From positions 1 through 39,414 of IMG/VR virus record IMGVR_UViG_2225789004_000001: DNA of 39,414 nucleotides, one strand, 5' to 3'. The first letter of the stretch is position 1, and each line of letters opens with the position of its first letter. Below are positions 1 through 39,414 of this stretch, piece by piece. The stretch is from a virus. Both the position numbers and the translations under genes were made by a program. The notes below the pieces were generated by a model that did no database searches, was not told the DNA's origin, and saw only the letters and a list, made by a program, of their open reading frames with translations.

Positions 1-33
1 TTTCATCACTGCTGCTCATATTGACATTTCTAA
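1..33. repeat. Terminal overlap, left copy (identical to 39382..39414)
   Basis: tttcatcactgctgctcatattgacatttctaa read at both contig ends. This is consistent with a circular or terminally redundant assembly. Confidence 0.9.
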
Positions 34-91
34 GATGTTCTGTCAAATCACTTTCACAAAACGGACAAAATATCTCTAATTCATCAGACAC
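1..91 (-). CDS. N-terminal part of a junction-spanning Zn-ribbon protein (51 aa when circularised)
   Basis: Hand translation: GTG at 91..89 preceded by GAGGGA, giving MSDELEIFCPFCESDLTEHLRNVNMSSSDE... The frame runs off position 1 and continues at 39381 down to TAA at 39317..39319. Confidence 0.5.
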   Translation of the reverse strand, partial: MSDELEIFCPFCESDLTEHLRNVNMSSSDE

Positions 92-101
92 TATAAATCC
101 C

Positions 102-278
102 TCATCTTATGTTTGTAATTTCGTTTTTAAATTCCGTGTAATTTTGACATACCCACAATTTAAAAAAACCAAAAGGGGCAACTCGGACAACTCTTGCATT
201 TTGATGTTTACATCCATTTTTTGAAAAATGATAACATAAAGAATTGTTACATCTAACAGACACTATTCCAGATGCCAT
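102..278 (-). CDS. Small Cys-rich protein
   Basis: ORF track 102..284 has a TTG start. ATG at 278 follows GAGGA. The TGA stop overlaps the next start in an ATGA arrangement. Contains C-x4-C-x8-C-x-H. Confidence 0.5.
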   Translation of the reverse strand: MASGIVSVRCNNSLCYHFSKNGCKHQNARVVRVAPFGFFKLWVCQNYTEFKNEITNIR

Positions 279-288
279 TTTCAATTCC

Positions 289-585
289 TCAATTTTTAGA
301 TTCGAAACTCATGCAGTAAAGAGAATCTTTTAATGAAAACGGCTGTTCCGATTTCTGCAATTTAATGTTTTTCAACAAGCATGAACCGTTTTTTTGACTC
401 ATGCATAATTTATTATTGCCGACCCATGCAATTTTCTGAATTTTCTTTTCCAAGAAATCATGAATTCTTTCGTCTGCAAAATCATCTGGAAGATTATTAA
501 GGCGATTTCGAATTCTATTTTCTATCAATTTGTCGATTCCATCATCCTTTTCGATAAAATCAACATCTATCAGCAATTTTGGCAT
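289..585 (-). CDS. Hypothetical protein
   Basis: ORF track 289..654. Internal ATG at 585 is preceded by GAAGGTGATTAAA, directly after the TAA of the upstream gene. Confidence 0.6.
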   Translation of the reverse strand: MPKLLIDVDFIEKDDGIDKLIENRIRNRLNNLPDDFADERIHDFLEKKIQKIAWVGNNKLCMSQKNGSCLLKNIKLQKSEQPFSLKDSLYCMSFESKN

Positions 586-586
586 T

Positions 587-958
587 TTAATCACCTTCTT
601 TGGAATAAGCAATCCGGCAAGTTGGTTCAATATAAGTTGTTTCTTTGGCAACACTGATTTCTGGATATTTCAGTTCCAATTCTTTCAATGTTTTTGAGTT
701 CCACGAACTTCGTTCATGTCCTTTCACATACGAAACCGTTGCACCTGCTGTCTTGATACTTGTATCAGCCGGACAACACATTCGCACATTTAATTCCGCA
801 CGGCGAAAAATCTGATTCGCTTCCGAATTTTCAAGTTTTTGCTGTGCTTCCAAGAAGATTTTCTGTGCTTTTTGAAATTCTTTGTAATCTTCACTTTCAA
901 GGAAATGGTTTCTCTTGGAAACCAAATCTTCGACCATTTCACCGAATTTTTCAATCAT
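587..958 (-). CDS. Hypothetical protein
   Basis: ORF track 587..997. ATG at 958 overlaps the TGA of the upstream Zn-ribbon ORF (ATGA coupling). Confidence 0.6.
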   Translation of the reverse strand: MIEKFGEMVEDLVSKRNHFLESEDYKEFQKAQKIFLEAQQKLENSEANQIFRRAELNVRMCCPADTSIKTAGATVSYVKGHERSSWNSKTLKELELKYPEISVAKETTYIEPTCRIAYSKEGD

Positions 959-1116
959 TTTTCCCATTCCATTTCTGCGTTTAAAGTTCCACGACAATTT
1001 GGATTCCTACACCAGAATTTTAAAGTGTAATGAACCGCATCGCCGGTATCGTATTTAGCGTTTTTAGTTTGTTCAAGAGTGTCGCATTTACAATGCGGAC
1101 ATTTCAAATCAACCAT
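955..1116 (-). CDS. Zn-ribbon protein, 53 aa
   Basis: Hand translation, below the track length cut-off: MVDLKCPHCKCDTLEQ...FWCRNPNCRGTLNAEMEWEK. SD GGGGTGAT lies upstream. Confidence 0.55.
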   Translation of the reverse strand: MVDLKCPHCKCDTLEQTKNAKYDTGDAVHYTLKFWCRNPNCRGTLNAEMEWEK

Positions 1117-1121
1117 CGAAA

Positions 1122-1577
1122 TCACCCCACTCTTTCAATGAATTTTTCTAACCATGCGATGATATGTTCCGGAACTTCGATTTTCAACCAAGCCGAACCA
1201 TATTTGTAACCTTCATCGTCATAAATGCCAAACTCTTCTAAAATTTTACAAGTGGTTTCATAATCAAAAGAGCATTTGGATTGGAGTTCAAGATATTTCA
1301 TGAGTTCAGTCTGCTTCACCGTTCCGGCTCTCAAATTGTTGAGATGGTAGTTATCCCAGACATACATCAGAAAAGCGAAATCTCGTTTACTGAATTTTTG
1401 GTAAATTCTCAATTCGCCGGATTCATATTTCTTTTTCAAATAATCTTGAATCTGACCGATATGATTTCCACCGATGTCGCCGCAGATGCTTAACACGCCA
1501 TCTTTGGTGTATTCAATTTCAATTGTTACAAGACCTTCGTCTTTGATTACTCCAAATTTTATTGCTTTTTTAATCAT
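1122..1577 (-). CDS. Hypothetical protein, first gene behind promoter module at 1584..1650
   Basis: ORF track. GGAGTGAT SD 6 nt upstream of the ATG. Confidence 0.75.
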   Translation of the reverse strand: MIKKAIKFGVIKDEGLVTIEIEYTKDGVLSICGDIGGNHIGQIQDYLKKKYESGELRIYQKFSKRDFAFLMYVWDNYHLNNLRAGTVKQTELMKYLELQSKCSFDYETTCKILEEFGIYDDEGYKYGSAWLKIEVPEHIIAWLEKFIERVG

Positions 1578-1583
1578 TTCAAA

Positions 1584-1650
1584 TCACTCCAATTAGGTAA
1601 TTTACCTACAATATAGTAAAGTATCTATAAGTATATATAGGTTTTGGTTA
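1584..1650 (-). promoter_or_regulatory. Conserved promoter module (CCAAAA, TATATATA, N13, TACTATATTGTAG, hairpin, GGAGTGAT)
   Basis: On the minus strand: TATATATA 1632..1639, TACTATATTGTAG 1606..1618, palindrome TAGGTAATTTACCTA 1594..1608, SD 1584..1590. Confidence 0.65.
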
Positions 1651-1654
1651 AACC
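1605..1654. repeat. 50-bp perfect repeat, copy A (identical to 38642..38691)
   Basis: cctacaatatagtaaagtatctataagtatatataggttttggttaaacc read identically at both loci. It spans a promoter module and the stop region of an HNH-like gene. Confidence 0.85.
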
Positions 1655-1655
1655 A

Positions 1656-2093
1656 TCACCGAACCCGATTTTGCATATTTTCGGCATGAGTAATCCAACG
1701 ACAGTTTTCAGGTTCATAATTTCCGTTGTTATTGATTCTGTCTAATTCTAATCCTTCTTGGTATCCGTTTTCCATCGCCCAATCAAAAAAAGATTTAAAA
1801 TCAGATTTCCAGATTTCACATACTGAAATACCTCTGCCGCCGTAATCAGGATACGCATTTCTGTTTGGATTTGAACAGCGGTCTTTCATGTTTCGCCATA
1901 CGTTATGGAGTTTATGATTCGACAATCCGTGTCGAGTCATTTTTGTTGAAACATAACATTTCCGGCACAAATCCGTTTTCCGGCGTTCCCAGTTAATCAA
2001 TTCAACTTCTCTTAATTCGCCGCAATTCGGACATTTCACATTTTCATACATTTTCGTTAATTTATTTCGTTTTCTTTTTCTCACCTCTCGCAT
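1656..2093 (-). CDS. HNH_3-type endonuclease-like protein with N-terminal Zn ribbon
   Basis: ORF track 1656..2132. CPNC...CRKC, then WRNMKDRC..NP..YPDYGGRGISVC..W and LDRINNNGNYEPENCRWITHAENMQN. ATG 2093 follows GGTGATGAAA. The start choice is uncertain. Confidence 0.65.
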   Translation of the reverse strand: MREVRKRKRNKLTKMYENVKCPNCGELREVELINWERRKTDLCRKCYVSTKMTRHGLSNHKLHNVWRNMKDRCSNPNRNAYPDYGGRGISVCEIWKSDFKSFFDWAMENGYQEGLELDRINNNGNYEPENCRWITHAENMQNRVR

Positions 2094-2098
2094 TTTCA

Positions 2099-4144
2099 TC
2101 ACCGCCTGCCGGGTTTCAACTGAAACGACCATGTTGTTTTCTTGGAAGTTGAATTTGAAACATACCGTTTTTCGAATCCCTGTAAATCCATTTCAACGGA
2201 AAAGTTACCGCTTGATAACGGTTTATATCCATTTTCGTCACACCAAATAGAATACTCATATTTGTAAAAATGAGCGGCTGTAACAGACTTTAAATATTCG
2301 TTTAATTCAGCCTTTTCGCCATAACCGTTGAGGAACTCTACGACCGGATTTGACAAGATTTCATAGGCTTTTTTCATCTCAATCACACTCTCGGAAATAG
2401 TGAATCCGTATTTTTCCATTCGCCAATATCCTTTTATTGCCTGCTGTATTAGATATTCCAACGATTCGTGCGTTGTCAGTTTATCTATCATTTTATCATC
2501 TTCATCAGTCGAGGTGAATTTTGCAATAAACGGTATCAAGATGATTCTTCGAAGAAAACCATCCGAAGTATCGTCTGTTCTTGGCGGACGGTTTCCGGCG
2601 AAGATGAATTTTGCACAATTTGAAAATTTAATCGGTGTTTGGAATTTTATATCCACTGTCACCGAATCGCCAGTGACGAGTTTCTTAAAAAGGTTTGCAC
2701 CGGACACATATCGCATATTTATGTCACTGCCGATATTGATTAATTTACCGATTAATTTATGAGTGAAAAATTGCTTATTCAAATCTTCAAAATCCAATGA
2801 TTCAATATTATTACCGCCGAAAGCTTTCGTCACTGCTTTTAAGAAAGTGGATTTGCCGTTTGCACCAGAGCCGATTAAGAAAAACGATTTTCCTTTTTCA
2901 TTTCTTGGATTCAGGCAGAAACCAATCATTTCATAGAGAAGTTTTTCTAAATCTTCGTTGTTGCAAGTGATGTCTCTCATAAATTCGTCAAATACCGGCG
3001 ATTTCGCATTTGGATTGAAATCAATCGGTAATTTAAAGAAACAAATCCTGTCCGGTGAATAATCATACACCTTTCCGGTGCGGTTACTCCAAACGCAATT
3101 GCTAAAACCAATAAATTCATACAACTCCGCATCTTGAATATCAAAATTTGGAATCGCTTCTTCGGTTGTTAAGATGAAATCAAAAATTTCATTTATTTCA
3201 TTGCGTTTGAGATTGAAAATCGTATCCATGATTAAAGATTTTAAATTATCATTACGATAAATGCCATTTTGATACGCATACGGAACTCCGTTTATCTTTT
3301 TTATGTGTAAAACATTAATCAGACATTCTGCCGCATCTTGGTGCTTAAAACCATAATGCGGTTCGACAAACTATAACTTATCCGCTTTACCGCCAGTCGC
3401 AACCGTTGCCTTTTCAAATGTCTTATCCCGAAGAATCGCATCCATTTCCTTTTTCGATAATTTCTCTTCAAAAATCATTCCATTGATGATTCGACAAACT
3501 GTTTCAACATCATCTCGATTCATCAACTTTTGAAGTCCAAGAGCAAACTCAGAAAGCGTATGATTCCGGCTTCCTTGCTTCATTTTGAAAATGGATTCTC
3601 GTTTTTTGAAATAATAGAAGAAAAACGGAAGTGGGGACAATTCATCAAACGAATAAATTTCACCAAGAAAATTGCGGTCAATGGTATCCAGTCGAATCGG
3701 CTCATAGTCCGGATTTTTGCCTTGTTCACCGCCGAGTTTATATTCACATTCCAAACCTAACGCACAAATATGTCCTTGCGGTATTTTTTTTGGAATATTT
3801 CCTCTTGGGTTCTCAATCAAATCAGGATTCTTAAAATAGATGTGGTATCCTTTTTCAGTTTGAACGACATTATATTTCAAATCAATTTCGAACATTTCTT
3901 TTTCGACAATTAATTTCAAAAGACTGACTGCGAATTTACCTTCTTCTTCGTTATCGAAATCAAGAACAACAATGCCGTTTCTAATCTCTCCGGCAATGAA
4001 GTTTTCAGTTTCATCAACATTATAAAGCAACGGTGCTGAACGTGGTTGAAGCGGCACTTTCTTTTGCTCTGCATGCCATGCTTTCGCACTTAATTTGAAA
4101 AAACCATTATAAAGAGATTGAATTTTTGGATTTTTTAAGTCCAT
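2099..4144 (-). CDS. Prim-Pol primase fused to D5/P4-type helicase, with one in-frame TAG at 3371..3373
   Basis: ORFs 3371..4153 and 2099..3229 are in the same frame (924 nt apart). The 47 codons between them have no stop. N-terminal part has VVLDFDNEEEG and GYHIYF (Prim-Pol-like). C-terminal part has Walker A GSGANGKST. ATG 4144 is preceded by GAGTGATAAAA. Confidence 0.7.
3371..3373 (-). other. In-frame TAG inside the primase-helicase
   Basis: Context ...ADKL-TAG-FVEPHYGFKHQDAAECLINVLHIKKINGVPYAYQNGIYRND... The frame stays open into the helicase domain. Confidence 0.75.
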
Positions 4145-4149
4145 TTTTA

Positions 4150-4407
4150 TCACTCATCTGGTAAACGCTTTGCCAATACTCTTTCTTCGTGTTGTCGTTC
4201 AATGGATTGTAAAAATCTGGAAATCCGATACCGAATTTCTTTAATATCGTTTTGTTCCAATTCTTCGCCAACTTCCTCTATTTTTATGTGAAACAATTTC
4301 GGATTATCTTTCTGAACCGAAACTTTAACCATCATTACGATTTGAGAATCTAAATCTGTTGAAACATTTACCGGCGAACTCTTTTTTTTGAAAATATTAT
4401 TAAACAT
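4150..4407 (-). CDS. Hypothetical protein
   Basis: ORF track 4150..4578. ATG 4407 is preceded by GGAG. The upstream part of the ORF overlaps a hairpin-containing spacer. Confidence 0.5.
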   Translation of the reverse strand: MFNNIFKKKSSPVNVSTDLDSQIVMMVKVSVQKDNPKLFHIKIEEVGEELEQNDIKEIRYRISRFLQSIERQHEERVLAKRLPDE

Positions 4408-4481
4408 GATGAAAACTCCGAATTTTAATCTGGAAAACAACATATACGGATTAAAGTTTATTAAATTTCCGTATAAGAAAC

Positions 4482-4525: not shown

Positions 4526-4543
4526 TTTGTCGTTTTTAAAAGG

Positions 4544-6906: not shown

Positions 6907-6973
6907 TCCAATTATTAGTAGTAATTTTACTACAATTACATAAAGTCACTATAAGTATATATAGGTTTTGGTT
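6903..6973 (-). promoter_or_regulatory. Conserved promoter module, leftward arm
   Basis: TATATATA 6956..6963, hairpin GTAGTAA/TTACTAC 6918..6933, SD rc at 6903..6909. Shares 25 bp (6949..6973) with the 50-bp repeat. Confidence 0.6.
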
Positions 6974-7087
6974 GGATGTTTATGTTGTCTGCTATCGTTA
7001 TATTATATTATGTGTTGATTATGGGTTATTACTTTTTTATGTTTTCTTATTACTTTTTATGATTTTTTTTCAGTATTATATTTTTAA

Positions 7088-7123
7088 TTGTAAATTTACA
7101 ATTTTTTACAATATTTTTACAAT
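7088..7123. repeat. Iteron cluster 1: 14-bp palindrome TTGTAAATTTACAA plus three direct TTTACAAT
   Basis: TTTACAAT at 7095, 7105 and 7116, spaced 10 to 11 bp. Inverted ATTGTAAA at 7088. Confidence 0.8.
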
Positions 7124-7217
7124 AATCACCCCTTTTTTCGCCGATTTTTTCCAGTCGGAATAGAGGTGTGAGATTTATAATAATTGCTCAATATAAGTTT
7201 ATATAGGAAAATAAAAT

Positions 7218-7486: not shown

Positions 7487-7673
7487 TATCAGGAGAACCG
7501 AAGTTGAAACCGTATGACCCCGACCCCGTAAAAAATTTCTTCATTTCCGGCAACTGCTGTCGAATCCGAAAAAACGGCATTTTTCGTCAAAAATCCACCG
7601 GTAATAAGAGACGGTGTAAAAATAAATCAACTTTACTTGATTTACAGATTTCGCCTTTCTGGTTCTCCTGATA
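7487..7673 (+). other. GC-rich structured element closed by a perfect 13-bp inverted repeat (candidate ncRNA or MITE-like insert)
   Basis: tatcaggagaacc (7487..7499) pairs with ggttctcctgata (7661..7673). Internal hairpins: cgaaaaa/tttttcg 7567..7586, caccg/cggtg 7596..7616, aaatcaa/ttgattt about 7623..7643. Strand is not established. Confidence 0.35.
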
Positions 7674-7717
7674 GTGATTCTTTTCTTGGATGTGAGAGTA
7701 AAAAGAAGAATTTTCAA

Positions 7718-7782
7718 CCAATAAGTATATATAGGAATAAAGACTATACTATATTGTAGGTAAATTACCTAATTGGAGTGAT
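7718..7782 (+). promoter_or_regulatory. Conserved promoter module, rightward arm
   Basis: CCAATA, TATATATA 7726..7733, 13 nt, TACTATATTGTAG 7747..7759, palindrome TAGGTAAATTACCTA 7757..7771, GGAGTGAT 7775..7782. Confidence 0.65.
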
Positions 7783-12141: not shown

Positions 12142-12211
12142 CCAAAGATTATATATAGGAAGACATCCCTATATAGTATTGTAGTAAAATGATACTACAA
12201 CTTGGAGTGAT
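12142..12211 (+). promoter_or_regulatory. Conserved promoter module (last one before the long rightward operon)
   Basis: CCAAAGAT, TATATATA 12150..12157, 13 nt, ATATAGTATTGTAG, hairpin GTAGTA/TACTAC, GGAGTGAT 12204..12211. Preceded by a long T-run. Confidence 0.6.
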
Positions 12212-12215
12212 TAAA

Positions 12216-12713
12216 ATGAAAACTTTGAACCAACTTTTGATTGAAAAGAAAATCGCATCTGAAAAATACAGTAATGCAATTCGCACGATGGATTGGATGG
12301 GTGAAGATAAAGACTTTGTTGAATCTTATCGAATTGCTTGTATCAATAAAGATGCCGAAGTTGCTCAAAAGAGACAAGAGAATAGAGATTGTGACAAATA
12401 TCTCGAAGAAGAGAGAAAACACCAAACCACTTTTAAAAATCTTCCGGAAGAATTTAAAAACATTGTTCCGAAAATTATGGAAATGGCAGAAACAGAAAAT
12501 AGATTCTGGGGTGAATGTTATGCGATTTCGTTTTATAATAAAGTCGCAAAATACACCAAAGGAAATGAGGAGATTAAAAGATTTTACTTCACCGGAGTTG
12601 AAGTTCTTGGTTTGGTAATCGGAAATGGCGGTGCTTTCGAAGTCAGAACAATTTTCGCAGGCGGTTGGAATGTTCAGAGATTTCATTACAGGGTTATCGT
12701 AACCCCTGTTTAA
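12216..12713 (+). CDS. Hypothetical protein
   Basis: Track ORF 12189..12713. ATG 12216 follows the SD. Confidence 0.7.
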   Translation: MKTLNQLLIEKKIASEKYSNAIRTMDWMGEDKDFVESYRIACINKDAEVAQKRQENRDCDKYLEEERKHQTTFKNLPEEFKNIVPKIMEMAETENRFWGECYAISFYNKVAKYTKGNEEIKRFYFTGVEVLGLVIGNGGAFEVRTIFAGGWNVQRFHYRVIVTPV

Positions 12714-12776
12714 TTTTTTTAAAGGAATAATCCAAACTTTTATCTCTTTTGAATTCATCATCTTTCTTGGTGATTT

Positions 12777-13295: not shown

Positions 13296-13805
13296 ATGGC
13301 ATCTTCTCAATTACCAAAAACTCTGGAATTTTGGCTCTCGGATAAAGGGCTTCTCATTTTGAATAGTTTCGGTAGAGCCGGAATGACTGTTAAAGAAGTG
13401 TGTGAAAAAATCTCTATTTCTCAAAAAATATTTAAAGCATGGATGGAAACACACCATTCGATTCGAAATGCGTTTAATCTGGAAGAACGGAATTATATTG
13501 ATATTGTTGAAGGCAAACTTTTAAAAGCCGTAACCAATGAAATTGAAACCTACAACGAAAAAAGCGTTGTTGAAAGAATTGTTTATGATTCCGAAGGTAA
13601 ACAAGTTGGTAAGGTTGTCACAAAAAAGACAGTTGAAAAGCCGATTAAAATCGAATCTGAATTAATGAAATTTTATCTCACCAATCGTGCGGCAGATAAA
13701 TGGGCGTATTCACCTGAACCAATTAAGAAACGAAATGTTTCAAAATTAGAGGAAATTATGCAAGAATGGGTATCGGAAAGCAATAAAGAGAGTGATGAAG
13801 AATGA
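13296..13805 (+). CDS. terS: Terminase small subunit-like HTH protein
   Basis: N-terminal HTH (GMTVKEVCEKISISQKIFKAWM), then ...IVEGKLLKAV... and ...FYLTNRAADKW... typical of TerS proteins. Positioned upstream of terL. Confidence 0.5.
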   Translation: MASSQLPKTLEFWLSDKGLLILNSFGRAGMTVKEVCEKISISQKIFKAWMETHHSIRNAFNLEERNYIDIVEGKLLKAVTNEIETYNEKSVVERIVYDSEGKQVGKVVTKKTVEKPIKIESELMKFYLTNRAADKWAYSPEPIKKRNVSKLEEIMQEWVSESNKESDEE

Positions 13806-14521
13806 AAGTTTTAGTTACCGGAACAACACACGGAATTGGACATTCAATTGCAAGGTTATTCTTGGAAGAAGGACATTTGGTTGTCGGGTTGGATATTGAA
13901 CCTGAAATCGACCCTTTAAGTGCCGAGTTTGCCGATTGGAAATTTTATCAATGTGATGTCGGAAAGCCGGAAGAATTGCCGGACGAATCTGATTTTGAAA
14001 TCATCGTAAATAACGCCGCAACTACGGATGAAAAATCCGCAATTCAGACCAATCTTCTTGGTTATGTGAATGTTGGTGAAAAATACGCTTTCCAAGAAAG
14101 AATTAAATCAGTTGTAAACATTTGTTCAATATCATCAGTTAGTGGAATTGAATTGCCGAATTATTGCATTTCAAAAGGCGGTAATTTAGCATATTCACAA
14201 AACTTATCTCTTCGATTAGCACCAAGAGCAACAGTAAATGCGATTATCTGCGGCGGTGTGATTACTAAAATAAATCAAGAGATTTTAGATGACGAGAAAC
14301 TTTACCAAATGTGTAAAGACGAAACCCTTCTTGGAAAATGGTGTCAGCCAAGAGAAGTGGCAGATTTAGTTTATTATTTGACAGTTGGAAATAAATCTAT
14401 CACTGGACAAACTATAACTATTGATAACGGTGAATGTGCCAAATTCAATTTTATTGGAACTTCCGAAGTTAAAAATGAATTTTATAAATCACAGTTTAAA
14501 AGGAGTGAATTATATGAGTAA
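13802..14521 (+). CDS. Classical short-chain dehydrogenase/reductase (SDR)
   Basis: TGTTHGIGHSIA (TGxxxGxG), NNAA, catalytic Ser region CSISSVSG, YCISK (YxxxK). Confidence 0.85.
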   Translation: MKVLVTGTTHGIGHSIARLFLEEGHLVVGLDIEPEIDPLSAEFADWKFYQCDVGKPEELPDESDFEIIVNNAATTDEKSAIQTNLLGYVNVGEKYAFQERIKSVVNICSISSVSGIELPNYCISKGGNLAYSQNLSLRLAPRATVNAIICGGVITKINQEILDDEKLYQMCKDETLLGKWCQPREVADLVYYLTVGNKSITGQTITIDNGECAKFNFIGTSEVKNEFYKSQFKRSELYE

Positions 14522-15080
14522 AACAAACGAAATTTCTGTTCTCGATATTGATATTGAACAAATTAAAAAATATGAAAACAACCCAAGAGAAAATGCGGAA
14601 TCAATTCCTTATGTTGTAAACTCAATTAAGGAATATGGGTTTAAAAATCCAATTGTTTTGGATTCCAACATGGTTATTATCGCCGGACATACAAGATTTG
14701 AAGCCGCAAAGATTCTTGAAATGAAAACAGTTCCGTGTATAATTGCGGAAGATTTGACGGAAGAGCAGGCACGAGAGTTCCGATTAATTGACAATAAAAC
14801 TGCGGAATTGTCTTATTGGAATTTTGATAAACTTTTAGAAGAGATTTCGCATTTGGAGTGCGATTTAACGCAATATGGATTCAATGACATTCAAGATAGT
14901 ATTCGAGATTTAGATGATGTTGATGAAATTACAGAAGATAATTATAAGAATCCGGAACAAGCGAAAAAGAAATGTCCGGCTTGCGGTCATGTTGATTTCG
15001 TTGTAAATTTCAGAATTGTTAAAAATGAAGCAGTATCATCAACACCAACTTTCGAAGAACCTGACGAGGAATTTGAGTGA
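14514..15080 (+). CDS. ParB N-terminal (ParB/Srx) domain protein with C-terminal Zn ribbon, DpdB-like
   Basis: YENNPRENAESIPYVVNSIKEYGFKNPIVL..IIAGHTRFEAAKILEMKTVPCII. CPACGH near the C-terminus. ATG 14514 follows AAAGGAGTGAAT. Confidence 0.75.
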   Translation: MSKTNEISVLDIDIEQIKKYENNPRENAESIPYVVNSIKEYGFKNPIVLDSNMVIIAGHTRFEAAKILEMKTVPCIIAEDLTEEQAREFRLIDNKTAELSYWNFDKLLEEISHLECDLTQYGFNDIQDSIRDLDDVDEITEDNYKNPEQAKKKCPACGHVDFVVNFRIVKNEAVSSTPTFEEPDEEFE

Positions 15081-15838
15081 AGATTTTCTTATCAGCAGTC
15101 GAAGGGTCTGAAAAACATATTATCGACAGATGTATTAGAGAAGGAATTAATCTCAAATACATTTTAATTTCTTATTTTCACCTTCGCAAAAACGAAAAAA
15201 TATTCAACAAATTAAGATTAATTTGCGATGAAATGCTCATCGACAGCGGGGCACACTCTTTTCAAAAAGGTTTTAAAGTTGATTTTTATGAGTTTACCAA
15301 AGAATATGCTCAATGGATTATCGAAAATGATTGCGACCAAATGACTGGTTATTTTGAGATGGATATTGACAATTTAATCGGTTATGATGAGGTTAAAAAA
15401 CTTCGTGCAATTCTCGAAGCCGCACACCCGACAAAAATAATTCCGGTATGGCACGCAACGAGAGGTGTGGAAGAGTTCGAAAAAATGTGTGAAGAATACG
15501 CAGGTCGAATCGTTGCCATTTCCGCAATTAGAAATAAAGACATTTCAGACGACCAGTATATGATGTTTTTGAAAACAGCAAAAAAATATGGATGTAAAGT
15601 TCATGCTCTTGGAATGACACGAACAAATTTATTAAATAAAGTTCCTTTTGATTATACAGATTCATCAACATGGAAACAAACTGGTAATTATGGCGGTTTC
15701 GCCAAATTTACAGGATGTAAAATGAAAGTCGTTAGTGCGGCAGGTGGTCTGAAAACTTATTATTTAGATTTTCATAATTTAAAAGAATTTATGAAAATGC
15801 AACAGTATTTCGAAGCAAAATATAAACATTTAGAATAA
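15077..15838 (+). CDS. dpdA: DpdA-like DNA transglycosylase (TGT superfamily)
   Basis: LIDSGAHSFQKG resembles the TGT DSGGFQ catalytic strand. FDYTDSSTW resembles the second conserved Asp strand. ILISYFHL is a TIM-barrel strand. Neighbours are ParB-like and YhhQ genes. Confidence 0.6.
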   Translation: MKIFLSAVEGSEKHIIDRCIREGINLKYILISYFHLRKNEKIFNKLRLICDEMLIDSGAHSFQKGFKVDFYEFTKEYAQWIIENDCDQMTGYFEMDIDNLIGYDEVKKLRAILEAAHPTKIIPVWHATRGVEEFEKMCEEYAGRIVAISAIRNKDISDDQYMMFLKTAKKYGCKVHALGMTRTNLLNKVPFDYTDSSTWKQTGNYGGFAKFTGCKMKVVSAAGGLKTYYLDFHNLKEFMKMQQYFEAKYKHLE

Positions 15839-15844
15839 AAGGAT

Positions 15845-25280: not shown

Positions 25281-25922
25281 ATGGATTTATTAAAATCGGA
25301 TTTACATCCGATTTTTACTTATAAGAAATGGGATTTCACATTAAATCTTTCTTTGGAACGTGTTCTTAATGCCATTTCTGCACTTGATGAAGAAGCGGAC
25401 ATAAAACAACTCGACCGCTTCTATCTCGTTTTGGATAATTTACTTGATGTCAATTCTAATGATTTTGATACTTTTGAGTATCTTGAAGAAATGACTTGTT
25501 TTGAACAATAGGAAGTTTTCACCATATTGCTGAAAACCTTCGTATTTCCGCCGGAATCTGCGATAAAACGCTCAACTCCATCTTTCGATATTAACTATGA
25601 TTTTGAACTCGTTTATACAGCGATTTTGAAGGCTTTTAATATTGACATTATCGACCAAAAAGAAGTGCTTTCTTGGAACAAATTCAGAGCCTTATTAAAA
25701 GATGTGAATGAAGATTCGATGTTAAATCGTGTTATTGAAATTCGAGAAATGCCTTTACCGCCTGCTACCAAGAAAAATATGGAACGGCGTGCTGAAATCA
25801 GGCGTGCGAAAAAGAAATATGACCTTCCGCACCTGAAAAAAGCAAGAAAGGAAAAAGAACGAGAGACATTGAGAAAGATGGCGGAAATGCAAAAGAAGGC
25901 GGAAGAAAATGGCAACACCTGA
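25281..25922 (+). CDS. Tail assembly chaperone-like protein, with one in-frame TAG at 25509..25511
   Basis: ORFs 25281..25511 and 25527..25922 are in the same frame (246 nt apart). Codons 25512..25526 are open. The basic C-terminal tail overlaps the tape measure start. Confidence 0.5.
25509..25511 (+). other. In-frame TAG in the chaperone gene
   Basis: ...EEMTCFEQ-TAG-EVFTILLKTFVFPPES... Confidence 0.65.
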
Positions 25923-28646: not shown

Positions 28647-30445
28647 TACCGCAATCATCGCAATATTATGTCAATGTTGATAAACCGATAAGAGAACCGT
28701 TCCACCCGACAGTTTTACTTTCATCTTCTGACCCGACATTGATTGCAAAAACACAGTTCGATTCTTCATCATCAGAACTTGTTTTTTCAAAACGTAACCA
28801 ACTTTTTAACCAAATTGTTAATCCTTCTTGGGGATTGCAAACTTTCGAACCAAATAGAACCATTGCAGATGGCAGTTTTGTCGTTTTTGATGATAATACC
28901 GCAGGTGAATTTGGATGGTGGTCGGAAGCAAGATGTGATGAGAATGGAGTTTTTGAAACACCGCAAATTATCAAACTAAACTACACGGAAAATTTAAATT
29001 TCATTGAGTTCAGTATCTTTTTCGATTCTTTTGGTAAAGAATGGTCTGATGATTTTGAAATTTTCTTTTATTCCCAATCCGGTGCAGTTATTCAAAGTTA
29101 TCATATTACCGATTGTGATTCTCCGATTTATCTGATTGAAAATGAATTAAATTTCGTCAGAAGTATGGAAATCAGAATCAATAAATGGTCTGTCGGACAC
29201 CGATTCGCAAAGATTTCAGAATTACTTTCAGGATTCGTTATTTCTTTCACCGATGACGAAATATTTGGAATTTCATTCACTGAAAATTTATCGCTTTTCC
29301 AAGAAGAAATCATCTCGTCAGAATTGTTAATTACAGTTGAAAATTTCAACCAACAGTTCAACATTAATAATCCGCAAGGTGTAGCGAAAAAATTGAATTT
29401 GAGACAAGTTTTCACTGCCGCAATTTCTTTGGAACATGAGTCTATTCCTCTTGGTCTAATGTATCTCATGGAACAACAAAATAACGACCGCAACTTCATT
29501 ACGTTTGTTTGTCGTTCGGTTTTTGATTTTAGCGAAGATGAATATATTCCAGAATCGTGGGAAACTTGTTCTGCATATTCATTATTTGAAAAATTATTCC
29601 AAAAAATTGGAATAAATGAATACGATATTCCTGAAAGTTTGAAAAATATTCAAGTAAATCAGTATGTCGAAAAAATGTCAATCAGACAAGCAATTCAACA
29701 ACTCGCAAATTCTGTTCGTTGTGTTGTTTATGTAAACAGAACCGGAAGTGTAACTGTCGATACCATCAATTCGTTATTTTCGCATACCGGACAATCTATC
29801 ACTTTAAATCAGAACACAACCGAAGAACCACCGAGAGTTGAAAAGTTAAAAACTAATGATTCAGCAACGGTGAATATTTATCAATATTCCAAAGATGATG
29901 AAATTGGAAATACGGAACTTGTAAAGGATTTTAAAGTTTTGGTTGATTCACCAACCCCAGTTTCGTATATTATTTCATACAAAACTATCGCTGATTCTGT
30001 AACCGCAGAAGTTACTGGCGCATCTGTTAGCGGCAATATTCTCTATTATGCAGATAGATGTGAAATTATGCTTTTCGGTCAAGGTGAAGCAGTTGTAAAT
30101 ATTTCAGGCACTCCTGTTTTACAAAAAATCGGAAAAGTTAATATAAAATCAGATTTATTTTATTTGAATCCGATTAAAGAGGATTATCTGATTGAAAATC
30201 AATTTATCGCATCCACTTCGGAAGGACGAATACTCGCAAGTGCATTTGTTGAATTTTCACAATTTAGATTGCGACATGAAGTTTACGAACGTGGCAGACC
30301 GGATTTGGAAGTTGGAGATATGATTAATGTCGAAAATGAGTTTGGACTTTTAACCAATGGAATCATTTTTGAACAAAATATCGAATTTAACCAGAATGGA
30401 TTTTTAGAAGGAAAAATGATTATCAAAGCAAAAGGTGAAAATTAA
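28643..30445 (+). CDS. Baseplate or tail-tip structural protein
   Basis: 600 aa, positioned after the tape measure gene. Confidence 0.55.
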   Translation: MIPQSSQYYVNVDKPIREPFHPTVLLSSSDPTLIAKTQFDSSSSELVFSKRNQLFNQIVNPSWGLQTFEPNRTIADGSFVVFDDNTAGEFGWWSEARCDENGVFETPQIIKLNYTENLNFIEFSIFFDSFGKEWSDDFEIFFYSQSGAVIQSYHITDCDSPIYLIENELNFVRSMEIRINKWSVGHRFAKISELLSGFVISFTDDEIFGISFTENLSLFQEEIISSELLITVENFNQQFNINNPQGVAKKLNLRQVFTAAISLEHESIPLGLMYLMEQQNNDRNFITFVCRSVFDFSEDEYIPESWETCSAYSLFEKLFQKIGINEYDIPESLKNIQVNQYVEKMSIRQAIQQLANSVRCVVYVNRTGSVTVDTINSLFSHTGQSITLNQNTTEEPPRVEKLKTNDSATVNIYQYSKDDEIGNTELVKDFKVLVDSPTPVSYIISYKTIADSVTAEVTGASVSGNILYYADRCEIMLFGQGEAVVNISGTPVLQKIGKVNIKSDLFYLNPIKEDYLIENQFIASTSEGRILASAFVEFSQFRLRHEVYERGRPDLEVGDMINVENEFGLLTNGIIFEQNIEFNQNGFLEGKMIIKAKGEN

Positions 30446-31875
30446 TGCAACCTTCAAGTGATATTATTTATATAACTTTTAACGAAGAGAAAATAGGATA
30501 CAATGGAACAGTCTATCCTATTTTAAAATCTTCTTTATCTACAATAACACCCTTTTTGGAATTTTCAGATAAAGATAAAAATCCATTGAAATTTTATTTA
30601 GATTCTCAATCGGAAACAACTTGGTTTTATATTATTCGATTTGATGCTAAAATAGGAATAAATAAAATTTATATTCACCCATCCAATATCAATAATAGTA
30701 GCATTGATGTTTTTGATGATTATTACGATTTAAGTAAAGGATTAGATGGAAGATTACAAGTATCAGACCCTTCAACAGGTGGTAATGAAGCGGCTTATCT
30801 TGCTTTGGTTTGGCGAAACAGTTTAACAGGAAGCACAATAGCTAACAGAGTAATCCAAGAAGTAGATGGATTACGATATGTAGGTAACTTCTCTCATTTT
30901 ATCAGACCTATATCATCTGTTAAAAACAAAGATTCTTTCGGTGATACATGGGAAGCAAAGGTTGAACATAATAACATTTATTCGAGATGTATATTTGGTT
31001 TTTCTATGCCAAGCCTTAATACAAATTCATATTCAGAAGGTATTAAAAAAGGAAATAACAATAGTTTATCAACAGGGAATAATATTTATTATAACGAATC
31101 AAATTCATCATCATTTAAAACAGATACTGATGCTGAACATGTAAAAACTGATATTTTTGGATTCAATACATTTGAAAATGGCGGTAACAGTTATTTTATT
31201 TCAGAAGATTATTCGAGTAAAATCGAAAGTGGATTTAAGCAAAGAAATCCGAATAGTGGATTACAAACTAACATTAGACATGAATTGAAAATTTGGTCTT
31301 ACGGCGTTAATTTGTCAGATAATTATAAATTATCAACCAAATGGTTTTGGATTCGAAAAAGAACAAATCCGATTCCGAATACCTTTATAATCACTATAAA
31401 TGACGATTAGGAATTTATACCAATTCCTCAATATGCATGGTTTTCTACATCTCCTATTAATGATTTTGATTTTAATAGAATTTCAAATAATATCGCAGTG
31501 TGTTGGACGATTCTTAATAAGATGGGTTATGTGAATCAATTTAGAGAAATGAGATGTGATTTCGATTTTTTTGAACATTTAGACGACCATATTCGTTTAT
31601 CCAAAGAATGGAAGAACATGAGAGAGAATTTGTGGGATTTGTATAAAGTATTTCCTTTGGTACAAATGTTTCCGGAAGCACCGATTTATGTTCAGTTTGT
31701 TGAACCGTCACCAAGAAATCCGGTGGAAGCATTAACGGCAAGTTTATTAAATTCAATGGAAATTAACTTGGCAAACTTATATTACTATTTAACGATATTA
31801 GAATTTGAAAGATTACCGATATTAATGACTGAAAACAGAATGAGACAAAGAATAGTGAGGAAACCGAATGACTGA
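30445..31875 (+). CDS. Tail fibre or receptor-binding protein, with one in-frame TAG at 31408..31410
   Basis: ORFs 30445..31410 and 31498..31875 are in the same frame (1053 nt apart). All 29 codons between them are open, and there is no SD-like motif before the downstream fragment. Confidence 0.5.
31408..31410 (+). other. In-frame TAG in the fibre gene
   Basis: ...IITINDD-TAG-EFIPIPQYAWFSTSPINDFDFNRISNNIAVCWTIL... Confidence 0.6.
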
Positions 31876-34292: not shown

Positions 34293-34523
34293 TTATCTCT
34301 TTTTCATTAATTCGTCTATCTGATACTGTAAATACTAACATTCATCGCCTAAATCGTTATAGCGATAAACCAATTTATTGTAGGCATCTGTATTCGGAAT
34401 TTGACAAATCAGGAAAACATTCTGAACTTTCATAAATTCCTTTGTGACTTTTTCTAATTTCGTTTTCAATTTTGAAATCTTTCGTTTATGGAAATACTTT
34501 TCAATAAAATTCATTTTAATCAC
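34293..34523 (-). CDS. Small protein, with one in-frame TAG at 34335..34337
   Basis: Track ORF 34335..34523 ends in TAG. The same frame continues YLQYQIDELMKKR to TAA at 34293..34295, 5 nt before the terminator stem. Confidence 0.5.
34335..34337 (-). other. In-frame TAG
   Basis: ...YNDLGDEC-TAG-YLQYQIDELMKKR-TAA. Confidence 0.5.
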
Positions 34524-37625: not shown

Positions 37626-37647
37626 ATTTTTATCACTCCATAGAGAT

Positions 37648-38343: not shown

Positions 38344-38390
38344 ATTTTCACTCCAAAAAAATTAAAAAATTTAGAAGATTGTTCCATCTC

Positions 38391-38393
38391 CTA
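38391..38393 (-). other. TAG at the ORF end (ambiguous: stop or sense)
   Basis: ...NLTLI-TAG-EMEQSSKFFNFFGVKICKPTIFKCL-TGA. The extension has no independent support. Confidence 0.3.
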
Positions 38394-38615
38394 AATGAGC
38401 GTTAAATTCTTTTCTGCACATCTTTTCGTATTTTTTTGTTCTTTTTTGAACAATTCTTTATTTTCTATTCTGGCTTTTTCAATTGCCGCTTCCAATTCTT
38501 CTTCGTCTTTTAAATAAATGATTTCTTTACCCGCTTCAACAATCATAAAAATACAATTGTTTCTTTTTTGGAAAAATTGATTTCCAACTCTTGTATCTGA
38601 ATTAGCCCATGTCAT
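38391..38615 (-). CDS. Hypothetical protein ending in TAG
   Basis: ORF track. If TAG is read through, the frame continues 25 codons to TGA at 38313..38315 and overlaps the erf start. Confidence 0.55.
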   Translation of the reverse strand: MTWANSDTRVGNQFFQKRNNCIFMIVEAGKEIIYLKDEEELEAAIEKARIENKELFKKEQKNTKRCAEKNLTLI

Positions 38616-38619
38616 TTTA

Positions 38620-38691
38620 TCACTCCAAATTAGGATTTAATCCTACAATATAGTAAAGTATCTATAAGTATATATAGGTTTTGGTTAAACC
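38620..38691 (-). promoter_or_regulatory. Conserved promoter module
   Basis: TATATATA 38669..38676. Hairpin TAGGATT-T-AATCCTA 38631..38645 has compensatory changes relative to TAGGTAA-A-TTACCTA. SD rc at 38620..38626. Confidence 0.65.
38642..38691. repeat. 50-bp perfect repeat, copy B (identical to 1605..1654)
   Basis: Identical string read at both loci. Confidence 0.85.
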
Positions 38692-39074
38692 CACCGACAA
38701 TTATTCGGAATATAATCGCCATCAGTATCGACACGAATTAATTTCTTGTTTGGTGCGTATCCGTTGTTTATCGACCATGCTTTAAAATTGGCATAATTTT
38801 GCCAAGAATGGTGAATTGTGATATTTGGCTTTCCGTTGTGTTTCATTCTTCCGCCGTAGAGGTGAAACCATGCGTTATGTGGATTGTGACAACGATTCTT
38901 CATCCCACTCCAAATGTTGTGAAGATGAGAATGTGAATCACCATGAGATTTCAAATCTGTGCGATAACATTTCCGACAGAGATTTGTTTTCATGTTTTTC
39001 AAGTTGTCATTTCGAACCTGACGAACTTCGCCGCATTTTTCACATTTTACGGCTGTTGTATTTCCTTTTTTCAT
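38685..39074 (-). CDS. HNH_3-like paralog with Zn ribbon (divergent)
   Basis: CEKCGEVRQV...CRKCY, HNIWSGMKNRCHNPHN, YGGR, DTDGDYIPNNCRWV. Same architecture as 1656..2093, but the core region differs. Confidence 0.6.
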   Translation of the reverse strand: MKKGNTTAVKCEKCGEVRQVRNDNLKNMKTNLCRKCYRTDLKSHGDSHSHLHNIWSGMKNRCHNPHNAWFHLYGGRMKHNGKPNITIHHSWQNYANFKAWSINNGYAPNKKLIRVDTDGDYIPNNCRWV

Positions 39075-39095
39075 TTCTCTTACTCCTTAAATTCC

Positions 39096-39302
39096 TCATT
39101 TTGTAATTTCAAAATACACTCGCGTTCCGTCATTCATCATGACGGAACCGCTCGGCTTATTTCGATTTTGTAAATATTTTTTCCCATAGAGCTTTTTTCC
39201 GCAATCGGGGCAGTGTTTGATATCATATTCGTTAATTAATTCCGAATTGAATGTGTATCCGCATTTTGAGCATTTCCCAAAATCACCATCATCAACAAAC
39301 AT
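39096..39302 (-). CDS. Zn-ribbon protein
   Basis: CSKCG...CPDCG. SD GAGGGATTAAA upstream. Confidence 0.65.
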   Translation of the reverse strand: MFVDDGDFGKCSKCGYTFNSELINEYDIKHCPDCGKKLYGKKYLQNRNKPSGSVMMNDGTRVYFEITK

Positions 39303-39316
39303 TTTAATCCCTCAAT

Positions 39317-39414
39317 TTATAACCAAAAGGCTTGTTTGCAATCCGAACAATGATATTCTTCAAATATTCGGTTTTTAATCGTTTCATCACTGCTGCTCAT
39401 ATTGACATTTCTAA
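39317..39414 (-). CDS. C-terminal part of the junction-spanning Zn-ribbon ORF (see 1..91)
   Basis: ...ETIKNRIFEEYHCSDCKQAFWL then TAA at 39317..39319. The last 33 nt duplicate 1..33. Confidence 0.5.
   Translation of the reverse strand, partial: RNVNMSSSDETIKNRIFEEYHCSDCKQAFWL
39382..39414. repeat. Terminal overlap, right copy (identical to 1..33)
   Basis: Same 33-mer as 1..33. Confidence 0.9.

Follow-up and report, generated by a model that had tools for sequence, protein, structure and literature searches.

Several systems are known in which a TAG codon, or another stop signal inside a gene, is overcome during translation. In the gut phages that use genetic code 15 (crAss-like, Lak and Garnet/Topaz phages), a suppressor tRNA with a CUA anticodon is usual but not universal, the TAG codons are numerous and cluster in the late and lysis genes, and much coding density is lost when genes are called with the standard code. 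Phage amber (sus) mutants from the laboratory carry single TAG codons in essential genes and are grown on suppressor strains. Programmed read-through gives a minor long isoform, as for the Qbeta A1 protein, which is made through UGA, and the −1 frameshift of the G/GT tail-assembly chaperones is functionally analogous to it. In the recoded prophages described by Borges et al. 2022 (bioRxiv 10.1101/2021.08.26.457843), most genes contain in-frame TAG. Finally, the decoding of TAG as pyrrolysine is ambiguous in pyrrolysine-using methanogens and a few bacteria and genome-wide in the archaea with code 34 (bioRxiv 10.1101/2024.09.30.615893; PMC12626013). In code 34, the TAG positions have no consensus residue in homologues, and reports of pyrrolysine in bacteria are limited to a few methylamine methyltransferases and to one L-serine dehydratase (bioRxiv 10.1101/2024.09.30.615893). 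A literature search gave no report of a virus that uses pyrrolysine.

The DNA that we analysed (the window) is a whole phage genome of 39,414 nt taken from a metagenome. It has in common with the code-15 phages a low G+C content, a depletion of TAG, the presence of in-frame TAG codons in essential or structural genes and the fragmentation of these genes when they are called with the standard code. However, it holds only four in-frame TAG codons in ∼10,300 codons, one of them is located in a replication gene (the primase), and their positions are fixed across relatives, with no turnover. The complete genome carries no suppressor tRNA, and TAG is not predominantly aligned with Gln, which is found only in the distant D6E terminase. 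A first, sequence-only reading of this genome had already set it apart from the recoding of crAss-like and Lak phages, and we agree, given the few TAG codons, the lack of a phage tRNA and the lack of alignment with Gln.

Pyrrolysine decoding resembles the present case in that in-frame TAG is rare and without consensus residue, TAG is hardly used as a terminator, and the decoder has to be supplied by the cell with no cis element, as proposed here. These features are permissive and not diagnostic, and the gene content points to a bacterial (Bacillota-type) host. As in Qbeta A1 and G/GT, the in-frame stop is followed by a conserved coding extension, here directly and in the same frame, and a fixed ratio of short and long forms is plausible for the fibre-like protein and for Gp15, which is adjacent to the tape measure. 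However, the codon is UAG and not UGA, the event is a read-through and not a −1 frameshift, four unrelated genes are concerned, two of the TAG codons lie within single folded domains, and no stimulatory context or structure was found. The sus mutants also have TAG codons one substitution away from a sense codon and need a suppressing host, whereas the TAG codons described here belong to natural metagenome sequences, occur in several independent samples and are conserved across lineages that differ at about one-third of their nucleotides.

Genes interrupted by TAG in the window

The genome (G+C, 36%; ∼39.4 kb) is that of a siphovirus, apparently lytic, and its gene content resembles that of Bacillota phages. 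Its two ends share 33 bases, which indicates a complete genome, circular or terminally redundant, from which nothing is missing. Six ORFs end in TAG, at the positions already given by the sequence-only reading (Table 1), and the bases found 3′ of these codons (T, A, G, G, T and G) are also as it reported. The same frame had been described as open past all six codons, with a biologically sensible extension in five. The first statement applies in a meaningful way to four sites, where the open runs are long (423 codons in the primase, 245 in TerL, 136 in Gp15 and 154 in the fibre-like gene), and the second count has to be reduced to these four; the runs of 13 and 25 codons at positions 34335 and 38391 are at chance level, and these two sites look like plain stops. 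TAA and TGA together occupy ∼6.8% of the off-frame codon positions, and by simple arithmetic from this frequency the chance of an open run of at least 136 codons is ∼1e-4. The codons that interrupt the genes are all TAG; there is no interruption by TAA, TGA or a frameshift.

Table 1. Location of the phage genome, of the four genes that hold a TAG in frame and of the two weak TAG sites
Feature	Coordinates	Strand	TAG codon or remark
IMGVR_UViG_2225789004_000001	1 to 39,414		Whole phage genome, 39,414 nt
Primase-helicase (D5_N + DUF5906), 684 codons	2099..4153	-	TAG 3371-3373, codon 261
Large terminase TerL, PBSX-type, 444 codons	16533..17867	+	TAG 17127-17129, codon 199
Phage_Gp15 tail-assembly protein, 213 codons	25281..25922	+	TAG 25509-25511, codon 77
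Tail-fibre or baseplate-like protein, 476 codons	30445..31875	+	TAG 31408-31410, codon 322
TAG at the end of a 62-aa ORF that lies just downstream of the DNA polymerase gene	34335..34337	-	Probably true stop
TAG at the end of a 74-aa ORF that lies upstream of the Erf gene	38391..38393	-	Probably true stop

In the primase-helicase, the TAG falls within the linker that joins the primase part to the helicase part. The phrog_864 match (residues 60–667) is unbroken across codon 261, the Pfam domains D5_N and DUF5906 are found 3′ of the TAG, and full-length homologues (678–688 aa) have D, E and D at this position. In TerL, the TAG falls within the ATPase domain: Pfam Terminase_6N covers residues 27–225, spanning codon 199, and the phrog_2 match extends over residues 5–421. 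The 120 TerL homologues listed are single chains of 404–432 aa, with 88–95% query coverage, and 118 of these have a Lys opposite the TAG. Over TerL residues 27–302, the solved D6E terminase (5OE8/5OEA) aligns in one stretch, with Gln at the TAG. The gene for Gp15 lies directly upstream of the tape-measure gene. PF06854 (Phage_Gp15) and phrog_706 each match this protein in one stretch, over residues 8–182 and 4–199, with the TAG at residue 77. Continuous homologues have R (locus L013) or N (locus L014) at this position, and the matches obtained by tblastn in Streptococcus and Latilactobacillus phages cross it unbroken.

Thus, the domain continuation that had been noticed in the two enzymes is supported by single matches that span the TAG, and the same is true for Gp15. 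The residue aligned to TAG, for which Gln was the precedent considered, is K in the TerL homologues and D/E in those of the primase, and therefore not of the Gln type. When genes were called again with TAG as a sense codon, as had been suggested, the coding density rose from 0.912 to 0.925 and the profile matches were continuous across the TAG; the remaining genes are intact and packed, with 91–93% of the genome coding. Judging from the alignments, the TAG codons of the primase, TerL and Gp15 must be translated through.

The fibre-like protein has no family match in Pfam/PHROG profile searches, and its AlphaFold model, which is helical (pLDDT 68), has no neighbour in the PDB. Its TAG stands exactly where the variable N-terminal part gives way to a conserved C-terminal domain (∼154 aa, helical), and it is probably also translated through.

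Conservation and frequency of in-frame TAG

We compared the window with relatives from independent metagenome assemblies of different projects, which have 63–68% amino-acid identity with it (35–42% for the fibre). Relative A is represented by loci L001/L022 for the primase and L011 for TerL, Gp15 and the fibre, with ∼68% nucleotide identity. The TAG codon is found at the identical position in all four genes of relative A, in Gp15 of relative B (L002, identical to L009) and in the fibre of an otherwise different phage, L014. With the TAG shown as *, the conserved surroundings in relative A read DKL*F.E..YGFKHQDAA in the primase and GYIENL*KEYTGVFF in TerL; in Gp15 they read EQ*E.FTILL in both relatives, and in the fibre the junction TAG is followed by EFIP in relative A and in L014. 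Conserved residues with degenerate codons have the identical codon between relatives in only 53% of the cases. Synonymous sites are therefore largely randomised, and the TAG is still kept in six of six comparisons.

The sequence-only reading had also noted that no ribosome-binding site or start precedes the downstream fragments. This holds for the primase, TerL and Gp15, where neither a restart codon nor a ribosome-binding site after the TAG is conserved in the relatives; this speaks against split genes. The fibre differs: an AGGA motif is located four bases before a possible ATA/ATT start, and in the distant relative L013 the C-terminal domain is encoded on its own. Separately translated halves in relatives had been named as a result that would speak against read-through; instead, except for the fibre, the relatives hold the TAG at the same positions without start signals, which strengthens read-through.

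The four shared sites show no turnover. Relative A carries two further TAG codons of its own, one at codon 16 in a tail protein and one at codon 17 in the fibre; the matching residues in the window are Tyr and Phe. Newly gained TAG codons at ordinary positions speak for a decoder acting in trans. In this respect the general decoding that had been proposed finds support, whereas the rarity of in-frame TAG and the fixation of the four shared sites count against it. Over 10,310 codons, TAG is found 4 times in frame, as against 82 and 39 times in the two off-frames, a frequency 10–20-fold below that off-frame, which indicates a costly codon rather than a free one. Accordingly, in-frame TAG behaves as a rare, costly and selectively retained codon and not as an ordinary sense codon.

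The use of TAG as a terminator is less informative. Outside the TAG sites, 25 genes end in TAA and 28 in TGA, in agreement with the earlier statement that the other delimitable genes use these two codons, and the exceptions are three doubtful ORFs (6972-7163, 7637-7759 and 12195-12761). The first two are tiny; the third is antisense to a gene at 12189-12713 and is probably spurious. These counts come from crude ORF calls in the window and in the fetched parts of relative A, which gave only two candidates for a true TAG terminator in the former and none in the latter (L011, L022). However, TAG and CTA are depleted 4.4-fold in every frame, TAG makes up only 7.9% of the off-frame stop triplets, and CTAG does not occur in the window. 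The scarcity of TAG terminators in the window is thus largely a result of this general depletion and is not independent evidence for recoding.

Decoding of the UAG codons and alternative explanations

Our preferred reading, to which we assign a probability of about one-half, is that UAG in four essential genes is read by a decoder that is not encoded by the phage and comes from the infected cell. ARAGORN finds no tRNA in the complete window and an Rfam search (E <= 5) finds no tRNA-like element, as the inspection by eye had suggested; the phage encodes none of the genes that a pyrrolysine-decoding cell carries, pylT (tRNA-Pyl, CUA anticodon), pylS and pylBCD, and no CUA-anticodon tRNA was found in the fetched parts of the relatives' genomes. 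There is no common sequence context at the four sites, which are followed by T, A, G and G and have variable flanking synonymous sites, and the earlier impression that the TAG codons share no motif is confirmed. No downstream RNA structure is conserved either (z-scores from -3.2 to +1.9, with one outlier that is absent in the relative). The lack of both a phage tRNA and a shared context or structure points to a decoder acting in trans, from the infected cell. The residues found opposite TAG in homologues and at the lineage-specific sites (K, D/E, R/N, Y and F) indicate that this is not the TAG-to-Gln reassignment of code 15. By elimination, we infer that the decoder is host-encoded, and its identity and its decoding efficiency are likewise inferred.

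According to this reading, the ribosome would translate through each UAG to give full-length primase-helicase, TerL, Gp15 and fibre-like protein. The decoder would most likely be a CUA-anticodon tRNA, either a natural amber suppressor or of the pyrrolysine type, perhaps helped by an RF1 termination that is weak or absent. Incomplete decoding is probable and would explain why TAG is tolerated only in proteins needed in low copy number, why TAG terminators are nearly absent in the lineage and why in-frame TAG is rare. Against a cellular decoder, two scans of GTDB genomes found no relative, and a suppressor tRNA, a pyl operon or an RF1 defect of the host is therefore hypothetical; the scarce TAG terminators of the window are already accounted for by the TAG/CTA depletion, and L014 apparently uses TAG as a stop, so that the fibre site may not need a general decoder.

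A further step, which we regard as doubtful, would be that the host belongs to a Bacillota-type bacterial lineage in which UAG is no dedicated stop, RF1 being lost or ineffective and UAG being decoded genome-wide by a CUA-anticodon tRNA, of the pyrrolysine type or another. General decoding of UAG is not known to us from any bacterium, and a search of the literature found no case. If true, this would be a bacterial counterpart of the archaeal code 34, or a new bacterial genetic code, with these phages as its first visible footprint, and the phage would be tied to that host by the fixed TAG codons in four of its essential genes.

Programmed leaky termination in a host with the standard code is the alternative that survives best, and we consider it a serious possibility, if an unlikely one. 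RF1 would stop most ribosomes, near-cognate Gln, Tyr, Lys or Trp tRNAs would read UAG in a few per cent of the cases, and the TAG codons would be selected attenuators that keep the full-length proteins or the long fibre form low; the short forms may be useful. The strict conservation of TAG amid varying synonymous sites points to selection for the stop codon itself, and the strong avoidance of in-frame TAG (4 versus 82 and 39), together with the lack of turnover, fits such leaky termination at least as well as a cellular decoder. In the window, TAG occurs only in proteins presumably needed in low copy and is absent from the genes for capsid, portal, major tail and tape measure; in the primase, at the linker, and in the fibre, at the junction of its N- and C-terminal parts, a short form could function. 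The coexistence of the fibre TAG with apparently normal TAG stops in L014 also fits. However, a shared context and a conserved stimulatory structure are both absent, and TAG codons inside a single folded domain, as in TerL and Gp15, would yield mostly useless fragments. Moreover, truncation at codons 16 and 17 in relative A would give products without conceivable use, and to our knowledge no case of programmed UAG read-through has been described in a dsDNA phage of Bacillota.

It is improbable that the suppressor comes from another mobile element in the cell, such as a prophage, a plasmid or a co-infecting phage with a CUA-anticodon tRNA, in which case the phage would depend on a helper and not on the host chromosome. 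The window itself has no tRNA, in-frame TAG codons are also found in other phages from neighbouring samples, and suppressor tRNAs are common on recoded phages and present in their standard-code relatives as well (bioRxiv 10.1101/2021.08.26.457843). However, the fetched loci carry no suppressor tRNA, and to depend on a helper for four essential genes seems fragile over so long an evolution, the sites being kept in relatives at 63–68% identity.

We give still less credit to true stops followed by reinitiation at the downstream half of split genes, a possibility that is most plausible for the fibre only. There, the C-terminal domain is encoded in L013 by a separate gene of 160 aa with its own ATG, and GAA TTT AT(A/T) comes directly after the TAG in the window, L011 and L014, with AGGA four bases before the possible ATA/ATT start. 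In contrast, the primase, TerL and Gp15 have no conserved in-frame start past the TAG, conserved coding resumes at the codon directly after it, the TerL and Gp15 breaks interrupt single Pfam domains, and all 120 listed TerL homologues are single chains. Finally, the TAG codons are each one substitution from a sense codon of homologues (AAG, GAG or TAY), as would be expected of errors in assembly or sequencing, or of nonsense mutations if the phage were decaying or defective, but this view is effectively refuted by the same TAG codons in independent assemblies of lineages ∼32% diverged in nucleotides, by interruptions that are TAG only, without frameshifts, and by the intact, densely coding rest of the genome.

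Weak TAG sites and side observations

The two remaining TAG codons are probably plain stops. Read-through at 34335 adds only 13 codons, and a single base separates the TAG from the preceding ATG of the next gene (34341-34339; ATGtTAG), an arrangement typical of stop/start overlaps. The 25-codon extension at 38391 overruns the ribosome-binding site (GGAGTGA) and the start of the Erf gene; the ORF of relative A at the same position is not homologous, and the extension has no homology there.

In L014, which carries the fibre TAG, TAG is apparently an ordinary stop elsewhere, and its Gp15 gene appears to end in TAG. In the unrelated phage L007, which comes from a neighbouring sample, a Tyr position of the minor capsid protein is occupied by an in-frame TAG; the homologue in the window has a Tyr there, in the matching motif YG.PDG.

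In-frame TAG codons in four long genes

The six TAG-terminated ORFs listed by a sequence-only reading of this genome, together with their contexts, were found as described. When TAG was read as a sense codon, exactly four long genes gained one in-frame TAG each (Table), and the other long genes contained none. As TAA and TGA together occupy ∼6.8% of off-frame codon positions, the runs of 136–423 codons that stay open after these TAGs are far beyond chance. Moreover, single profile matches span the TAG in the large terminase TerL (Terminase_6N, residues 27–225), in the Gp15 tail-assembly protein (Phage_Gp15, 8–182) and in the primase-helicase (phrog_864, 60–667), and the solved D6E terminase (5OE8/5OEA) aligns unbroken over residues 27–302, across the TerL TAG. 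No in-frame TAA, TGA or frameshift was found. In public records of the same contig, the primase appears as a 376-aa 'primase C-terminal domain' and the fibre-like protein as fragments of 321 and 117 aa. Standard annotation pipelines cut these genes in pieces, so that such phages are systematically mis-annotated.

Five of the six sites had been proposed to have biologically sensible extensions; four hold. Extension by read-through amounts to 13 codons at site 34335 and to 25 codons at site 38391, both at chance level. At 34335, the ATG of the next gene lies one base before the TAG, and at 38391 the extension overruns the Erf ribosome-binding site and no homologue of it was found in a related phage (relative A). 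Conserved coding was rejected for the latter extension: the ORF of relative A in the same place is also 100 aa long yet non-homologous, so that the equal length is coincidental. Both TAGs were treated as ordinary stops.

Features of the window, with the position of the in-frame TAG where one is present
Feature	Position	Strand	Observation
Primase-helicase	2099–4153	-	TAG 3371, codon 261; 423 codons open afterwards
TerL	16533–17867	+	TAG 17127, codon 199; 245 codons open afterwards
Gp15	25281–25922	+	TAG 25509, codon 77; 136 codons open afterwards
Fibre-like protein	30445–31875	+	TAG 31408, codon 322; 154 codons open afterwards
Replication block	∼7,000 down to 1, then 39,414 down to 34,300	-	
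Short-chain dehydrogenase	13802–14521	+	
ParB-like protein	14421–15080	+	DpdB-like by our reading
TGT/DpdA-like protein	15077–15838	+	phrog_887 'queuine tRNA-ribosyltransferase' match
Vut_1/YhhQ-family transporter	15845–16540	+	PF02592, E = 1e-47

The earlier proposal of 'general decoding' was overstated, since only four in-frame TAGs occur in 10,310 curated codons, compared with 82 and 39 in the two off-frames. None is found in the capsid, portal, major tail and tape-measure genes of the window, and the four TAG-bearing proteins are probably needed in low copy. Selection against TAG in frame persists, as expected under slow or incomplete decoding. Crude ORF calls gave two candidate TAG terminators for the window, whereas the portions of relative A that were fetched showed none. 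TAG makes up 7.9% of off-frame stop triplets in the window, which predicts ∼4.5 TAG stops. Since TAG and CTA show a 4.4-fold depletion, on either strand and in every frame, composition explains the low terminator use in the window alone. When the window and relative A are pooled and ∼100 genes are assumed, ∼8 TAG stops would be expected against the two seen (p ∼0.01), which is only suggestive of a shortage beyond composition.

Conservation of the TAG codons in related phages

Protein searches returned truncated homologues starting just past the TAG positions of the window, and their contigs, once fetched, carried TAG there too. Relatives from three lineages were recovered. Relative A (Ga0265295_1002027, IMGVR_UViG_3300028601_000087; 33.6 kb) is also present in SRR27710299 at 97.7% identity. 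Relative B is a 6-kb ENA contig with an identical record in IMG/VR and a JGI contig of equal length (L012); contigs from ERZ27264051 and SRR5215205 encode its Gp15 protein as well. The third lineage, L014 (a 56-kb contig), is clearly another phage.

Relative A is ∼68% identical to the window in DNA, with protein identities of 66% for TerL, 68% for Gp15, 63% for the primase and 35% for the fibre, and it has TAG at exactly the matching codon in all four genes. Relative B has TAG at the matching codon of Gp15, and L014 has it at the fibre junction, while Gp15 of L014 is continuous. In codon alignments, the synonymous neighbours of TAG vary freely (e.g. AAT TTA TAG and AAC CTT TAG), and only 53% of conserved residues with degenerate codons keep an identical codon, whereas TAG was kept in six of six comparisons. 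By rough estimates from these alignments, the chance of such retention would be ∼7e-4 if TAG behaved as an average degenerate codon and ∼0.03 if it behaved as an average single-codon residue. The four-site feature is real, reproducible and maintained by selection; translation very probably proceeds through the four TAGs by one means or another.

Candidate explanations for reading of UAG

Homologues indicate no consensus residue at the TAG positions, and certainly not glutamine; the code in use is not code 15 (TAG-to-Gln). The TerL TAG corresponds to Lys in 118 of 120 homologues and to Gln in the distant D6E terminase, the primase TAG to Asp, Glu and Asp in the three nearest full-length homologues, and the Gp15 TAG to Arg or Asn. 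Relative A has two further TAGs of its own, at codon 16 of a 145-aa tail protein (Tyr in the window) and at codon 17 of the fibre (Phe in the window and L014). One in-frame TAG also interrupts the Phage_min_cap2 minor capsid protein (1766–2842, minus strand) of L007, an unrelated phage of a neighbouring sample (JGI 3300000062); the window homologue has Tyr there, in the matching motif YG.PDG. L007, too, hardly uses TAG as a terminator. An equal lack of consensus characterizes TAG-as-pyrrolysine in the archaeal code 34 (bioRxiv 10.1101/2024.09.30.615893). It would fit mixed near-cognate reading equally well.

The view that the phage has no tRNA and that the TAGs have no common context was borne out. 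ARAGORN found no tRNA, and Rfam at relaxed thresholds (E ≤ 5) gave only four chance-level snoRNA/miRNA matches and nothing tRNA-like. The next base differs between sites, flanking synonymous positions vary, and when the 123 nt starting at each TAG were folded, window and relatives showed no downstream structure in common. The only unusually stable segment of the window, a long hairpin at the TerL TAG (17127–17249, plus strand; -31.6 kcal/mol, z = -3.2), is probably no conserved signal, since its counterpart in relative A has z = +0.4. A-to-I editing (UAG to UIG, read as Trp) was rejected, as the TadA target motif, UACG in a loop, is missing from the TAG contexts. With no shared cis signal, a trans-acting decoder is the simplest reading.

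The decoder would have to come from the cell, because the phage genome is complete (∼39.4 kb, circular or terminally redundant) and lacks a tRNA. Completeness follows from the identity of bases 1–33 with bases 39382–39414 and from the source of the window, which is the reverse of a 39,486-bp MEGAHIT contig (ena:ERZ27245259:k141_1727189, also at JGI) minus 36 bases at each end. We infer a host-supplied decoder, to which we give a probability of about 0.5: UAG would be read by a natural amber suppressor or a Pyl-type tRNA, possibly helped by a weak RF1. The missing cis signals, the new TAGs at ordinary positions in relative A, the location of TAGs within single folded domains and the second phage with an in-frame TAG, from a neighbouring sample, speak for it. 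The original interpretation is right on read-through and on a phage without its own decoder, but claims too much generality. In the search for a host, none of 185,579 GTDB genomes yielded a relative when scanned with a profile of the conserved tail protein of 600 aa, and a degenerate DNA pattern for the fibre junction (TAG-EFIP...DFNR) gave five matches in unrelated taxa, about the number we would expect by chance, none of which encodes the domain.

In the known forms of phage stop-codon recoding, phage suppressor tRNAs drive a wholesale reassignment of TAG to Gln or of TGA to Trp, or the phage simply mirrors a recoded host. In contrast to both, the in-frame TAGs here are few, lie in replication, packaging and tail genes at positions conserved across diverged relatives, and occur in a complete genome without its own decoder. 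The window resembles code-15 phages (Borges et al., bioRxiv 10.1101/2021.08.26.457843) in TAG depletion and in fragmented standard-code gene calls, but differs from them in having no Gln identity, suppressor tRNA or multitude of recoded sites. It resembles pyrrolysine-type ambiguous decoding in every testable feature, the defining genes of which would sit in the host; reports of Pyl in bacteria are so far confined to a handful of enzymes (bioRxiv 10.1101/2024.09.30.615893). Literature searches brought up neither a bacterial lineage that decodes UAG generally nor a phage that combines sparse, conserved amber codons with the lack of a tRNA. The chance that the feature marks an undescribed way in which bacteria decode UAG is not negligible. 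Should a host tRNA be the decoder, these phages would indicate a bacterial lineage, so far unrecognised, in which UAG is ambiguous or reassigned, and could serve as bait for finding it.

Leaky termination, kept by selection as an attenuator, is a possible though rather doubtful alternative. The strict persistence of the four sites, the avoidance of in-frame TAG elsewhere, the low-copy targets and the apparent use of TAG as a normal stop in L014, which keeps the fibre TAG, all speak for it; however, a stimulatory context was not found, and most of the TerL and Gp15 output would be useless fragments. Such an attenuator would offer an alternative to the tail-chaperone frameshift; we know of no earlier case of programmed UAG read-through in several genes of a dsDNA phage. 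Supply of the tRNA by a helper element is unlikely: suppressor tRNAs are common on mobile elements, but nothing points directly to one here.

True split genes are more improbable still. Codon alignments show no conserved in-frame start after the TAG in the primase, TerL and Gp15, conserved coding resumes at the very next codon, and all 120 TerL homologues listed are single chains; split translation of these three genes was therefore rejected. The earlier statement that downstream fragments lack a start applies to them, but less clearly to the fibre, where the TAG is followed by GAA TTT AT(A/T), giving an AGGA motif and a possible weak ATA/ATT start. Exactly at the TAG, a fast-evolving N-terminal part of the fibre gives way to a conserved C-terminal domain of ∼154 aa. 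This domain follows the TAG in L014 (10001–11407; ∼150 aa), which apparently uses TAG as a stop, and stands alone, which favours splitting, as a 160-aa gene with its own ATG in a distant relative (L013, 8999–9481). It behaves as a mobile module; its AlphaFold model is helical (pLDDT 68) and has no PDB neighbour at E ≤ 0.001, and the fibre matched no Pfam or PHROG family. Read-through fusion and termination-reinitiation are both possible for this gene. Finally, although one substitution separates each TAG from a sense codon, conservation at matching codons between assemblies excludes sequencing error and gene decay, to which we attach almost no weight.

Genome organization and a likely DNA-modification module

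The genome (36% G+C) has two gene blocks on opposite strands. The replication block encodes a DUF2786 protein, the primase-helicase, two HNH endonucleases, Erf and a DNA polymerase. The plus-strand block comprises small early genes, a DNA-modification module, terminase, an SPP1-type portal, a minor capsid protein and capsid, followed by tail genes, Gp15, tape measure and distal tail or fibre proteins. The HNH endonucleases are paralogues (1656–2132 and 38685–39074, minus strand; both phrog_374/3377), one of them directly downstream of the primase gene. Many genes are preceded by Shine-Dalgarno sites of the GGAGTGA type, and no integrase was seen among the proteins scanned. Promoter and terminator scans gave counts at shuffled expectation and carry no information on bacterial versus archaeal transcription. 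For the polymerase, portal and Gp15, the nearest cultured relatives, at 25–38% identity, are phages of Staphylococcus, Paenibacillus, Bacillus, Enterococcus, Streptococcus and Listeria. Megablast of 21 kb of the window against 50,697 GenBank phages found no near-identical phage, and a TerL peptide scan of IMG/VR gave no match.

The genes at 13802–16540 (plus strand), directly upstream of the terminase, are likely to form a 7-deazaguanine DNA-modification module. No preQ0 synthesis genes were seen in the window, implying import of the precursor from the host. Purely as speculation, a tRNA-Tyr whose wobble base had been altered by the TGT-like enzyme might favour the reading of UAG. The idea that DNA modified by this enzyme was misread in sequencing, giving the TAGs, was rejected, because the modification acts on G, the T of TAG is decisive, and identical TAGs occur across many independent assemblies. 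The YhhQ-like transporter gene of relative A (L011, 1197–2175) seems to have been rearranged, with only its C-terminal half recognisable; this ORF overlaps another, has an in-frame TAG at codon 67, and could be another recoded gene or a degraded one.

The tetranucleotide CTAG is absent from the window, where ∼12 would be expected after correction for TAG/CTA depletion. It is likewise missing from L006, from L013 and from the loci fetched for relatives A and B (loci named for this observation: window 1–39414, L001, L002, L005, L006, L011 and L013). Avoidance of restriction might explain the absence of CTAG and the depletion of TAG/CTA, as might a mutational signature of the host.
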